NCBI GenBank assembly: GCA_963772455.1 | Contig: CAVYXJ010000006.1 | Location: 1-64,000 of the forward strand | Source: Candidatus Bathyarchaeota archaeon | GTDB taxonomy: Archaea; Thermoproteota; Bathyarchaeia; Bathyarchaeales; Bathycorpusculaceae | DNA length: 64,000 bases | Direction of reading: 5' to 3' | Part shown: one piece after another, positions 15,357 through 17,643 of the stretch | Position numbering within the stretch: the stretch's first letter is position 1 | How the letters are laid out: each line of letters starts with the position of its first letter | Notes under the pieces: generated by a model | Told to the model about the DNA's origin: nothing | The model's database searches: none | The model's input: only the letters and a program-made list of their open reading frames with translations | Program-made: the position numbers and the translations under genes

Positions 15357-15432
15357 CCCGATAAATTACACTAATAAGCGCTTGCCTTTAAGCAATTGCA
15401 TACATAACTCCCGGCTTAGTCAATATAGCCTT
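15357..15432 (+). repeat. Repeat A, copy 1
   Basis: About 70 of 77 positions match 16201-16277; internal palindromes AAGCGCTT and TGCAATTGCA-like. Confidence 0.9.
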
Positions 15433-15697
15433 GCAAAAGTGTATTAACTATTAGACACTTTCTTAATGTGGATGCAAAAACTATGGAAGCGATGTTAAAG
15501 AAATTTGGAAGAAGCCAAACCGTAGTTCCAATAGTACGAACTCGCACGTTAACTTTAATAGTTCATATGCCAAAAAAATCATAAAGTAGGTCAAGCCCCC
15601 TTGTTGGTTACAAATTGTCGTAGCGTGCGCAATACTCACTGATTGGTTAACATAAAACTAATATCTGTGGATAAACTATCTAAAGTTAGGGATACTT

Positions 15698-16081
15698 ATG
15701 GGCGATAATATCATCGTTAAAGGAAATAAGAACATCACAGGAAAAGGCAACGTGGTGGGACATCACAATGTTGTTGGAGATAGCAATGTCCTGACCAACC
15801 AGGATAAGAACGATCTTAAAGAAAGCCTTGAAGGATTTCGAGAGGAACTAGCTAAATTGAACCTGCCTAAAGAGAAATTTACTGTTGCAAATGGAGATGT
15901 AACTGCTGCCATAGAAGAGGCAAAAAAAGAGCAGCCTGACAATAAGAAAATTCAAAACCGGTTTAGCGATGTTCTTGAGTCGATAAAAGAGGTTGGCAAA
16001 ACTGACGCGGTGTCAAAATGGGATTGGACAAAAAAAATTTTAACAATACTAGGGAAAATCGGCTTATCGATCGTGCTATGA
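15698..16081 (+). CDS. Hypothetical protein: Gly/Asn/Val pseudo-repeats + helical bundle
   Basis: GNKNITGKGNVVGHHNVVGDSNV followed by an amphipathic helical region. Confidence 0.75.
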   Translation: MGDNIIVKGNKNITGKGNVVGHHNVVGDSNVLTNQDKNDLKESLEGFREELAKLNLPKEKFTVANGDVTAAIEEAKKEQPDNKKIQNRFSDVLESIKEVGKTDAVSKWDWTKKILTILGKIGLSIVL

Positions 16082-16109
16082 GTGCAGTTTAAATTATTTT
16101 TTTTAAAGC

Positions 16110-16191
16110 ATCTCGTCTACTTGCATTAGCGCCTTAGGGCTAAGAATGAAACGGCCAATGCATTATTTTCAATAACCAGTTTTATTTTTGT
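16110..16191 (-). pseudogene. Repeat B, copy 1: degraded copy of the 17500-17643 zinc-finger gene
   Basis: About 70 of 83 positions match 17518-17600; reads KNKTGY*K*CIGRFILSPK with in-frame stops. Confidence 0.8.
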
Positions 16192-16200
16192 GCGCTTAGC

Positions 16201-16277
16201 CCCGATAAAGTAAACTAATAAGCGCTTGCTCTTAAGCAATTGCATACATAAGCTCCCGGCGTAGCCAATATAGCCTT
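16201..16277 (+). repeat. Repeat A, copy 2
   Basis: Matches 15357-15432. Confidence 0.9.
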
Positions 16278-16316
16278 ACAACATTGTAGTTACCGATTAA
16301 ATTTACTCCTTGACAT

Positions 16317-16354
16317 TTGCAACTATTGGTTTTTTGGTCTACCACAAAAAACAC
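16317..16354 (+). repeat. Repeat C, copy 1
   Basis: 32/38 identical to the reverse complement of 58431-58468, including a perfect 19-mer GGTCTACCACAAAAAACAC. Confidence 0.8.
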
Positions 16355-16464
16355 AAAACCAAATCTAATTTGTAAAGAAAGTTTGACTGAGCATTTTTGA
16401 GAGTTAGTCAAGAAAGTTTGACGAAAAGGCTTTTCAATAACAAAAGATTGATTCGAGTTGACGA

Positions 16465-17448
16465 ATGAAGATGAAAAGAGTGCTGACGTTCCTATGCCTC
16501 ATTCTGGTTTGTTGGTCACTCGTTGGAATATCGCACCAGTCTTTTGTTAAAGGAAACCCGTTTGATTTCCAAAGAGCTCATGTAATTTTGCTAACTCCTG
16601 AAAATATATCACGCTCGCTAGAACCCCAAATAATCCATTTAAGAATGACAAATACTGAAAATGCATCTAGCGGTATCCCGCCTGAGTGTTCTCTAATTCT
16701 GCATGAAGCTAACTTAGATAGTTTCAGGTTCACTTTGAGGGTTGTCACAACGGCGTTGTTCTGGCAGAGCGAAAACGTTGAAGCGTGGCTCAATGTAGAC
16801 AGTCAAGCGCCAGTAAAACTTGACCGTACTGTCCTTGATAAACAAACTGGTCTCGCTCTTGTCGGAGCGATTTTTACAAGTGACTATGATTCAAGCCTAA
16901 GCGGCTTAGGTGAAGGTTATCATACAATAATAGTTCGAGTATTAAGTCCCCCTGACTATTCTATCAGCCATTTATCCGTCAATGGAAGCAACCCGCTTGA
17001 CCATTTTTATTTCGAGGGCAGCGTTCTCTACAGAATCGACACCACTAATCCAACTATCGGTAATATTTCTATCAAAGACTCCATTTATTTTAGAAACGAC
17101 TTGGAATTAAACTGTACAATCGATGAACAATTTTCATGGATCGCTTACAGCCTCGATAACCAAGCCAACGTTACCATTAAGACTAATCCGTATTATGATT
17201 ATACTTTAGATAATGCAAGTAACGAAACTATACAAGTCAACACAAATCTAACAAATTTAACTGAAGGCTCCCACAGCCTTACTATCTATGCTAAGGATGC
17301 TGCAGGTAACACGGGTGTTTCACAGACAGTCACTTTCACCGTTGTCAGACTCGAACCTTATATCATAATGACCGTTGTTTTAGCAGGGGTAGCTGCCATT
17401 ACAGCTTTGTTAATTCGTAGAAGACATCGCAAAATACCGCCTGTCTAG
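16465..17448 (+). CDS. Secreted, C-terminally anchored protein with Ig-like domains
   Basis: Signal peptide; YSLDNQANVT and LTEGSHSLTIYAKDAAGN; C-terminal TM + RRRHRK. Confidence 0.8.
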   Translation: MKMKRVLTFLCLILVCWSLVGISHQSFVKGNPFDFQRAHVILLTPENISRSLEPQIIHLRMTNTENASSGIPPECSLILHEANLDSFRFTLRVVTTALFWQSENVEAWLNVDSQAPVKLDRTVLDKQTGLALVGAIFTSDYDSSLSGLGEGYHTIIVRVLSPPDYSISHLSVNGSNPLDHFYFEGSVLYRIDTTNPTIGNISIKDSIYFRNDLELNCTIDEQFSWIAYSLDNQANVTIKTNPYYDYTLDNASNETIQVNTNLTNLTEGSHSLTIYAKDAAGNTGVSQTVTFTVVRLEPYIIMTVVLAGVAAITALLIRRRHRKIPPV

Positions 17449-17499
17449 TAAAAACAAGCAATATCTGCATTGTTGGGTCTAACTGAATTTTGTATTAAA

Positions 17500-17643
17500 T
17501 TATCCCTGTGATGAGGTATCTCGTCTACTTGCAAATGCGCCTTTGGGGCTGAGAATGAAGCGGCCAAAGCATTCTTTGCAATAACCGGTTTTGTTTTGGT
17601 AGGAGATTTTTCGGCCACATTTGCTTTTGCAGGTTTTTGGCAC
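17500..17643 (-). CDS. 47-aa Cys4 zinc-finger microprotein (not in ORF track; contains repeat B copy 2)
   Basis: GGAGGT upstream, GTG start: MPKTCKSKCGRKISYQNKTGYCKECFGRFILSPKGAFASRRDTSSQG*. Confidence 0.7.
   Translation of the reverse strand: MPKTCKSKCGRKISYQNKTGYCKECFGRFILSPKGAFASRRDTSSQG

Follow-up and report, generated by a model that had tools for sequence, protein, structure and literature searches.

The DNA considered here, called the window throughout, is the stretch of 64,000 nucleotides (nt) at positions 1 to 64,000 of contig CAVYXJ010000006.1 of a Candidatus Bathyarchaeota archaeon (assembly GCA_963772455.1), in which two short repeats, A and B, each occur twice and enclose two unrelated cargo genes in the tandem order A1-cargo 1-B1-A2-cargo 2-B2. 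With a probability of roughly 0.7, this arrangement is a decayed fragment of the junction between the early and the late genes of a head-tail provirus family of soil Bathyarchaeota, whose accessory-gene slot was doubled by illegitimate recombination. An initial annotation, made from the sequence alone, had taken the two units for a cassette-like gene-capture array. The recurrence of A and B as flanks with swapped content has been borne out, and the dedicated capture system has not, since A and B are backbone parts of a provirus; nor is the word array suitable for only two units in a decayed and rearranged provirus, with no recombinase adjoining them. Three findings had been named in advance as fatal to that proposal, namely that A and B occur only here, that they occur independently of each other genome-wide, or that the cargo genes are homologous, and none of them was made.

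Repeats A and B in the window

Reading of the interval 14800–18300, together with a repeat finder, reproduced all six coordinates that had been given for the A copies, the B copies and the cargo genes. A1 (15357–15448) and A2 (16201–16293) are 92% identical over the first 51 nt and 83% identical over the next 41, and their overall alignment agrees in 81 of 97 columns (83.5%). B1 (16110–16191) and B2 (17518–17600) are 84% identical across 82–83 nt, with a 30-nt seed at 87%. When the whole 2.45-Mb assembly was searched, A2 matched A1 with E 2.5e-26 and B1 matched B2 with E 8.3e-19, by which a chance likeness of the copies is excluded. In the full 64-kb window, a profile search found no A or B beyond two copies each.

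The conserved stretches are longer than was first given. At copy 1 the A block runs from 15192 to 15458 and takes in the start of a minus-strand gene, and at B2 the conserved stretch runs from 17488 to 17681 and takes in the final 11 codons of the upstream gene. The fragment as a whole spans about 2.5 kb (15192–17680), and both of its ends lie inside genes, at about codon 21 of the gene F1 and in the final 11 codons of the gene F2. Its features are as follows.

15192–15254, minus strand: F1' remnant, the opening 21 codons of the gene that heads the late operon, interrupted by TGA at codon 14
15255–15400, strand not applicable: A1 core, the conserved non-coding block upstream of F1 (profile match E 5e-46), with the palindromes AAGCGCTT and GCAATTGC
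15401–15458: A1 extension, lineage-specific, common only to A1 and A2
15698–16081, plus strand: cargo gene 1, 127 amino acids (aa), with N-terminal G/N/V-rich repeats and a C-terminal hydrophobic tail
16087–16194, minus strand: B1, zinc-finger pseudogene remnant (profile positions 85–195 of 205; nhmmer E 3.7e-23)
16196–16303: A2, truncated, consisting of the last ~50 nt of the core (profile positions 6–54) and the lineage-specific extension
16304–16464, plus strand: cargo 2 leader, with a 13-nt direct repeat at 16375–16387 and 16410–16422
16465–17448, plus strand: cargo gene 2, 327 aa, with a signal-like N-terminal hydrophobic stretch, an Ig-like domain and a C-terminal membrane anchor
17500–17643, minus strand: B2, intact 47-aa zinc-finger gene (family F3)
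17644–17680, minus strand: F2' remnant, the 11 codons at the end of the GNAT acetyltransferase gene, which in relatives stands before the zinc-finger gene

The F1' remnant reads MPHRRSEQGKILQ, then TGA, then seven further conserved residues, after which the similarity to F1 stops (15192, the blastn boundary); full F1 genes in relatives encode 102–109 aa. At the B2 side, homology to F2 ends at about 17677–17681, where the alignment and the profile end. The reading of B as a zinc-finger microgene, intact in one unit and inactivated in the other, is confirmed: the 47-aa frame of B2 is open, starts with GTG and carries four Cys as two Cys pairs, and B1 is without about its first 14 codons and contains two in-frame stops and one frameshift.

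The proteins of the two cargo genes are unrelated (BLASTP E 17), as the initial annotation had also held. The cargo 1 protein has no match in Pfam, PHROGs or PADLOC, and among 100 genomes of the genus it has one relative, which is 46% identical and does not adjoin A or B. Cargo 2 has a weak Pfam match to Big_13 (5e-5), and its relatives are found in 96 of the 100 genus genomes and at 14 places in its own genome; it is a member of a large family of host surface proteins.

The provirus family in related genomes

The backbone to which A and B belong was reconstructed by clustering the open reading frames (ORFs) of 13 loci that hold both A and B, the large terminase, the GNAT acetyltransferase and the ABC-type ATPase being identified by Pfam, and the methyltransferase and ParB-like protein by PHROGs. 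In intact relatives all genes run in the same direction, in the order early block, variable interval, A and late operon. The early block comprises a DNA methyltransferase, several unknowns, a ParB-like protein, an ABC-type ATPase, the GNAT acetyltransferase (F2) and the zinc-finger gene, so that, by ORF synteny, B is the final gene of the early operon. A stands immediately before the terminase/portal operon, which begins with F1 and continues with a holin-like protein, a winged-helix protein, the gene in the small-terminase position, the large terminase (Terminase_6N/6C in Pfam) and a portal-sized protein, beyond which come further structural genes, including those of the tail.

The position of the variable interval is seen in the provirus of G289:C7, where homology with two other copies starts at about 152 kb, reaches at least 177 kb and, in weaker form, about 186 kb, and is broken only by the interval 156.4–160.75 kb. 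Since homology is found on both sides of the interval, the interval is located inside one provirus of about 34 kb. In another relative (L078) a tyrosine integrase closes the early block; over 381 aa it shares 43.6% identity with the integrase of the window.

Among the species representatives of GTDB there are 29 zinc-finger loci, of which 13 keep at least two early-block families, 11 keep at least two late-block families and 9 keep both blocks; by these counts about half of the loci are decayed like the window. The hallmarks of a provirus (terminase, portal, tail and integrase) are present in relatives, the window having only the tail module and the integrase, and no large terminase or F2 relative was found in the window assembly (92% complete) with the queries used.

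Two side observations concern these loci. Some contigs with this archaeal provirus locus (L100, L103 and L107) come from bins titled Alphaproteobacteria or 'uncultured bacterium', and they are probably mis-binned. Moreover, the early-block ATPase (F14, PHROG 11143) has relatives at about 35 places in 10 related genomes, with up to 12 matches per genome, and most of them are 72–75% identical to the query; these sequences point to a second and more abundant element family without A or B.

Pairing of A with B and content of the interval

Ten related genomes, searched exhaustively at E ≤ 0.001, contain 22 A copies and 21 B copies. Each of the 15 long A copies is followed downstream by a B on the same strand: in 14 cases it is a full-length B at a distance of 0.6–7.2 kb, and in the fifteenth a truncated B, detected by profile alone, lies 2.2 kb away. 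Seven short A copies are unpaired, three of which (in genome G010) are composites of A and a truncated B (A|B'), and seven B copies are without a paired A. When counted from the zinc-finger gene, 18 of the 29 loci have a strong A 0.6–7.1 kb downstream and 2 have a partial A; the remaining nine have no A in the available flank, and two of these end within 3.4 kb of B.

For comparison of content, 22 intervals were taken, that is, 20 other loci and the two window units, and classes were formed at more than 30% DNA coverage. The 22 intervals, with lengths of 0.6–7.2 kb, fall into 16 unrelated DNA classes, and the DNA of cargo 1 and of cargo 2 matches no other A-B interval among them. The earlier statement that the units are not a simple duplication is supported, and A and B recur in other genomes as conserved flanks around unrelated gene sets. 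The shortest interval, of 593 nt, is found in two genomes and may be close to the empty state.

The Pfam content of the intervals is very diverse. It includes CheB-CheR-PAS histidine kinases of about 1100 aa, other PAS kinases and an NMT1-type binding protein; catalase, zinc alcohol dehydrogenases, winged-helix regulators of the Lrp/AsnC and DUF7347 types and an ABC ATPase; and NosD/beta-helix, PQQ-propeller, PKD/NHL and Ig-like surface proteins. Across loci the cargo genes lie on either strand. In a PADLOC search of 44 cargo proteins no recognisable defence system was found, and 7 of the proteins gave only domain-level hits to winged helix-turn-helix (wHTH) or ABC domains.

Some loci carry additional pieces of B. 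The loci L103, L107 and L116, two of which are on one contig, so that two genomes are represented, contain the same cargo class; the alignment is full-length for L103 and L116 and shorter for L107. All three have an inverted 50-nt piece of B close to A (about 290–340 nt before it), which points to an inversion scar that has been spread or inherited. A second partial B is also present at L106.

Conservation and possible role of A and B

The zinc-finger protein of B2 is 81–89% identical to 9 relatives, and the median ratio of nonsynonymous to synonymous substitution (dN/dS) of the gene is 0.09 (36 pairs). B is thus a real gene, which is under purifying selection at B2 and has decayed at B1. In the family sample, the A core recurs at 20 places in 13 other genomes with 85–93% identity, and the median Jukes-Cantor distance is 0.13 (136 pairs of copies), set against a median synonymous distance (dS) of 0.61 for the zinc-finger gene, a value from a smaller, overlapping set of loci and from 43 codons only. 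Both landmarks are under purifying selection.

The distribution of A is narrow. Among the genomes sampled, 12 of 88 within the genus have a match to the A query, as against 1 of 212 from 69 other genera of the family, the lone match outside the genus covering only the F1-coding left end of the query (positions 6–67). In relatives A has a total length of about 150–260 nt and stands directly before the late operon. In most of them its conservation runs about 110 nt further on the cargo side, where the window copies carry a diverged version, and the extension 15401–15458 was found in no other genome (100 genus genomes searched). At the locus L040, a shortened F1 and a different pair of terminase genes come after A, an arrangement which ties A to the packaging/late operon. 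It is inferred that A is a late promoter, a leader or the region of a packaging site.

Other identities were considered for the repeats and set aside. As an RNA gene or structured RNA, neither A nor B reaches the gathering score of any Rfam family, and an Rfam search of 15100–17750 gave only a chance-level match (E 1.9). When 17 A copies were folded to a consensus, compensatory change was seen in 0 of the 23 predicted pairs, the copies being too alike to exclude a structure. An att site linked to a tRNA was rejected as well: the repeats have no tRNA match, and the tRNAs of the window lie only at 55181 and 57667, none near A or B. A scan for promoters and terminators gave counts equal to those of shuffled sequence, the scan being of bacterial type and the host archaeal.

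The zinc-finger protein belongs to no family in Pfam, PHROGs or PADLOC, and against the sequences of the PDB it gives nothing better than E 0.4. Its AlphaFold model has a mean predicted local distance difference test (pLDDT) score of 69 and consists of a zinc knuckle and one helix; a Foldseek search with this model returned only one row, at E 2.6. Its neighbours in the ESM Atlas (score 0.87) are small viral hypothetical proteins, which serve as a lead only.

In IMG/VR the exact A 20-mer was not found, and the B 16-mer occurs at 11 loci, near the number expected by chance. Alignment of the zinc-finger protein to the same database found one weak relative, and the large terminase (TerL) has two (63–67% identical); all of them are without A or B. 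In JGI metagenomes there are nine A loci, mostly on contigs of 1.4–3.7 kb, one of which has B 1.56 kb before A.

A third zinc-finger remnant, comprising the final ~24 codons, is located in the window's own assembly at the start of another contig (C14:216–306, L008). Beside it lie an NMT1-type binding protein and a kinase, which are 52% and 46% identical to the corresponding pair in the A-B interval of L044 and are on the opposite side and strand compared with that pair.

Joints and origin of the tandem units

The slot lies between the stop codon of B and the beginning of A. The interval probably tolerates insertions because it is placed between the stop codon of the last early gene and the late control region, where an insertion spares the backbone genes. 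The conserved A and B would serve as homology arms through which related viruses would exchange the intervening content, and new content would arrive via illegitimate recombination. In the window, one illegitimate event would have joined about codon 14 of the zinc-finger gene to a point about 50 nt inside the A block, and this joint would have set two units in tandem, A1-cargo1-B1'|A2'-cargo2-B2; B1 would have decayed afterwards, and B2 would have stayed under purifying selection.

The joints themselves agree with such events. At the B1|A2 joint of the window (16194/16196) no sequence is shared at the junction, and position 54 of the A profile is joined to position 85 of the B profile. In the three composites of G010, A position 93 is joined to B position 115 via 8 filler letters; in L078, a piece of F2 follows A position 117; and the far (left) end of A is cut at five different points in five loci. 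That the breakpoints differ in joints of the same topology, in which the front of A is continued by a B-side piece, argues against site-specific recombination. When both cargo borders were aligned for 20 loci, no repeat common to the two sides was found, and no direct repeats at the cargo borders are consistent across loci. Such features mark repeated illegitimate recombination at a tolerant site, and not the action of a recombinase on a defined core.

The two cargo genes may have been brought together in two ways. The joint may have arisen between two close variants with different cargo, or A-cargo-B may have been duplicated in tandem within one genome, one cargo being later replaced or diverged beyond recognition. 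The second course is supported by the 58-nt extension, common to A1 and A2 and present in no other genome searched, and by the states common to B1 and B2 that only few relatives have. However, the cargo proteins are dissimilar, cargo 2 belonging to a large host family and cargo 1 not, so that a duplication within the genome needs a second event of replacement. Moreover, B1 is consensus-like at its 3' end, where B2 is derived, and the TC allele of A2, located in the spacer between the palindromes, is also known from other proviruses. Taken as a whole, the sequence comparison modestly favours a joint between two variants, and duplication in place is considered unlikely.

On the contig G010:C19 (L041; 6998–7177 and 13468–13644) a distance of 6.4 kb separates two A|B' composites that have one and the same breakpoint. 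They flank NosD-like, DsbA-like, PNPOx, ABM and wHTH genes, with a portal fragment adjoining, and the pair is a second, older two-unit array. In another genome (G285:C1:49473 and 56080) there are two A copies, 6.6 kb from each other, whose truncations fall at the same profile positions.

Population variants and reliability of the assembly

The metagenomic runs that hold the window stretch are mostly soil metagenomes. Four soil-metagenome runs from two studies, represented by short Logan contigs at 2–8x depth, were used, and all four hold cargo 2 and B2 at about 98–99% identity. In X2 and X3, which belong to the two studies, a contig passes straight from 15458 to 16404, with three extra letters in between, and thereby omits cargo 1, B1, A2 and 100 nt of the leader; 6 of 107 positions in its A part are unlike A1. 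From these contigs, which join A to cargo 2, it follows that unit 1 is polymorphic, being present or absent as a block. Because the joint is at non-homologous positions of A1 and A2, it is not the product of a simple crossover between them. Another contig of X3 enters from unrelated sequence, reaches 16327 and omits 16358–16403 (joint 16357>16404), and a further one runs from cargo 2 through the zinc-finger gene into an intact F2, beyond the point where the homology of the window ends. The cargo-2 module is thus present in at least three contexts, one of them on a fuller backbone.

The gain and loss of whole units recalls integrons, and a platform of that kind, in which a recombinase inserts circular cassettes bounded by A and B at a fixed site, has to be weighed. 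Like the cassettes of attI/attC and IntI, the units have short repeated elements between unrelated genes; the order flank-cargo-flank recurs, unit 1 is present or absent in the population, and composite A|B' joints are found in the window and in G010 (three copies), to which the truncated A copies of G285 may be added as putative composites. However, the breakpoints are variable and lineage-specific, the cargo borders have no repeat in common, the cargo lies on both strands, and the joint 15458>16404, with its three extra letters, is off the homologous positions of A1 and A2. There are only two units, no IntI or other recombinase stands next to them, and the only integrase (21501–22613), 4 kb from B2, is of an ordinary, generic phage type. 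As the initial annotation had noted, the flanks are not attC-like, for they contain no attC-type imperfect palindrome, nor are they CRISPR-like, there being two copies of each, spaced 844 and 1408 nt and 83–92% identical. An integron-like platform is accordingly very improbable.

Since the window comes from a metagenome bin, it might also be suspected that the strain variants A-cargo1-B and A-cargo2-B were stitched in tandem by the assembler. The bin has probable indel errors, the single-unit variant exists in other samples, and the joint has no independent cover. Against this, a chimera would be expected at homologous positions, and here a truncated and independently mutated B1 abuts a truncated A2 non-homologously; in addition, joints of the same topology are present in other assemblies. 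An artefact of assembly is therefore the reading to which we give the least credence. As for the missing cover, neither reads nor contigs of the four runs cover cargo 1, B1 or the B1|A2 joint, which shows nothing either way.

The quality of the assembly was judged from two places. The CTP synthase gene (24826–26455, plus strand) is split into ORFs of 99 and 425 aa, and about 20 profile positions are missing in the 52-nt gap between them (25126–25177); the enzyme is essential and yet split, which makes an assembly indel probable and calls for caution with frameshift calls in this bin. The tape-measure region (3–2297, plus strand) consists of six overlapping ORFs, two of them with tape-measure hits, and is either a decayed gene or affected by indel errors.

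Several of these points, and some of those given before, weigh against a provirus fragment with a doubled slot. Kinases, catalase and much else in the cargo look like ordinary genes of the host, an unusual content for a virus slot, and in IMG/VR no free viral genome with A and B was found. A has neither an Rfam match nor covarying pairs (0 of 23). The private extension of A1 and A2 and the states shared by B1 and B2 fit duplication in place equally well. The joined metagenomic form is known at a depth of 2–3.8x, and its A part is only 94% like A1. Lacking independent cover of B1|A2 or cargo 1, the tandem form rests on one assembly, and that assembly has the probable indel errors described above in CTP synthase and in the tape-measure gene.

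Short modules and a possible role in gene capture

In about half of the loci both backbone blocks are missing while A, the zinc-finger gene and cargo are kept, and it may be asked whether such short A-cargo-B modules are satellite-like hitchers, consisting of a helper packaging signal (A) and a zinc-finger regulator and mobilised by intact proviruses. On its left side A is cut off shortly after the core, at five different points, L103, L107 and L116 have one identical mini-module, and in bacteria P4 and P2 have only cos and the adjacent hotspot in common, according to the portion of PMC9122126 drawn on here. However, the count is biased, since A or B served as the query with which the loci were collected. 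An independent marker, the ATPase F14, greatly outnumbers A-B pairs (in the 10 related genomes, with rows grouped by hand, it has about 35 places and the portal matches about 9 loci) and lends no support to preferential retention, and the modules have no consistent outer borders, replication gene or integrase. Satellites of this kind are hardly to be expected here.

A bolder extension of the provirus reading, which is doubtful, would take the A core as a packaging/late-control site at which ends made by terminase or by replication drive the capture of host genes, the proviruses and the stripped A-cargo-B modules together forming a shuttle platform. If this were true, uncultivated soil Bathyarchaeota would exchange sensor kinases, catalase and surface proteins by means of this platform, and cassettes would still be gained and lost, the tandem unit of the window and the single-unit form of other soils each capturing one moment of the process.

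Comparison with known systems

The closest analogue of the slot is the cos-adjacent hotspot of P2-like phages. In the portion of Rousset et al. (2022, PMC9122126) drawn on here, this hotspot lies between the replication gene gpA and the portal gene gpQ (the old/tin locus) and is also present in P4 satellites, and the proposed mechanism is recombination at terminase-made ends followed by a second homologous exchange. As far as this source goes, the two share a fixed slot between the early/replication end and the packaging/head genes, conserved flanks and very diverse content. In the Bathyarchaeota loci the zinc-finger gene and GNAT are upstream and A, F1 and terminase downstream, both blocks being kept at 9 of 29 loci, and 16 DNA classes are found in 22 intervals. 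The differences are that the host is archaeal, the backbone is unrelated and A is only a putative packaging site here. In content, too, the slots diverge: none of the 44 cargo proteins belongs to a defence system known to PADLOC, and in place of the defence cargo of P2 and P4 there are sensor kinases, catalase, dehydrogenases, regulators and surface proteins.

The slot can also be compared with the morons of tailed phages, the idea of moron accretion being one that Hendrix and co-workers are said to have put forward. The moron model predicts scars of the kind seen in the tandem B'|A' joint, and the difference is that several intervals here are multi-gene, host-like and up to 7 kb long. As in morons and the hyper-variability hotspots of tailed phages (bioRxiv 10.1101/2024.10.15.618418), extra genes stand between backbone genes and are gained by non-homologous recombination.

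Head-tail proviruses of Bathyarchaeia with auxiliary or defence genes are already in print (PMC11705971; Duan et al., 10.1101/2023.08.24.554615). The terms 'variable region', 'accessory' and 'att site' are absent from the main text of PMC11705971, and a literature search that included this main text found no published description of the A/B-flanked slot. The slot works like an accessory-gene hotspot or moron site of phages.

That is to say, a principle of bacterial phages is extended to an archaeal lineage, and no new kind of system is revealed; the window preserves a clear recombination scar of the moron-accretion type. In practice, the A core and the 47-aa zinc-finger gene are two short markers by which the provirus family and its variable slot can be located in the genomes of Bathyarchaeota, a group with almost no experimental virology. 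What the slot carries is host-type genes of sensing, stress and surface, not known defence systems, and this points to viruses as carriers of adaptive genes in soil archaea.

Surroundings of the fragment

Outside the A-B fragment, the provirus is represented in the window by two features.

3–7759, plus strand: tail module (tape-measure pieces, tail protein, tail fibre), the contig beginning inside the module
21501–22613, minus strand: tyrosine integrase, the edge of the element (Phage_integrase 8e-6, below the Pfam cut-off; PHROG 216)

In the tail module, PHROGs identifies the tape measure at 3–395 and 1914–2294 and the tail fibre/tail protein at 5177–6898 and 6914–7756. A tail protein of 574 aa is shared with the provirus G289:C7 (at 176.4 kb), with 40% identity over 62 residues encoded at 6503–6688, and among the small genes after the tail module a 103-aa ORF is also shared with that provirus, at about 80% identity. 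In comparison with an intact relative, the A-B fragment is inverted relative to the tail-side genes, which means that the locus in the window is a rearranged mosaic; on the right it is bounded by the integrase, and then host genes follow.

Directly left of the F1 remnant, where relatives have late genes, there are a 73-aa ORF and a RadA/KaiC-like ATPase at 14036–14914 on the plus strand (Pfam Rad51, 1.4e-15). A full-length DUF3800-X RNA, an Rfam motif, is located at 12314–12386 on the minus strand (64.5 bits, gathering score 38.2), directly after the ORF 11819–12310 (PHROG 9243), and a stretch similar to this site is found at 92195–92263 of G289:C7, in a region adjoining a provirus. Finally, the ORF at 22696–23334 (minus strand), which matches only the C-terminal 60% of LPG_synthase_TM, ends just before the start of the integrase and may mark the target of integration.

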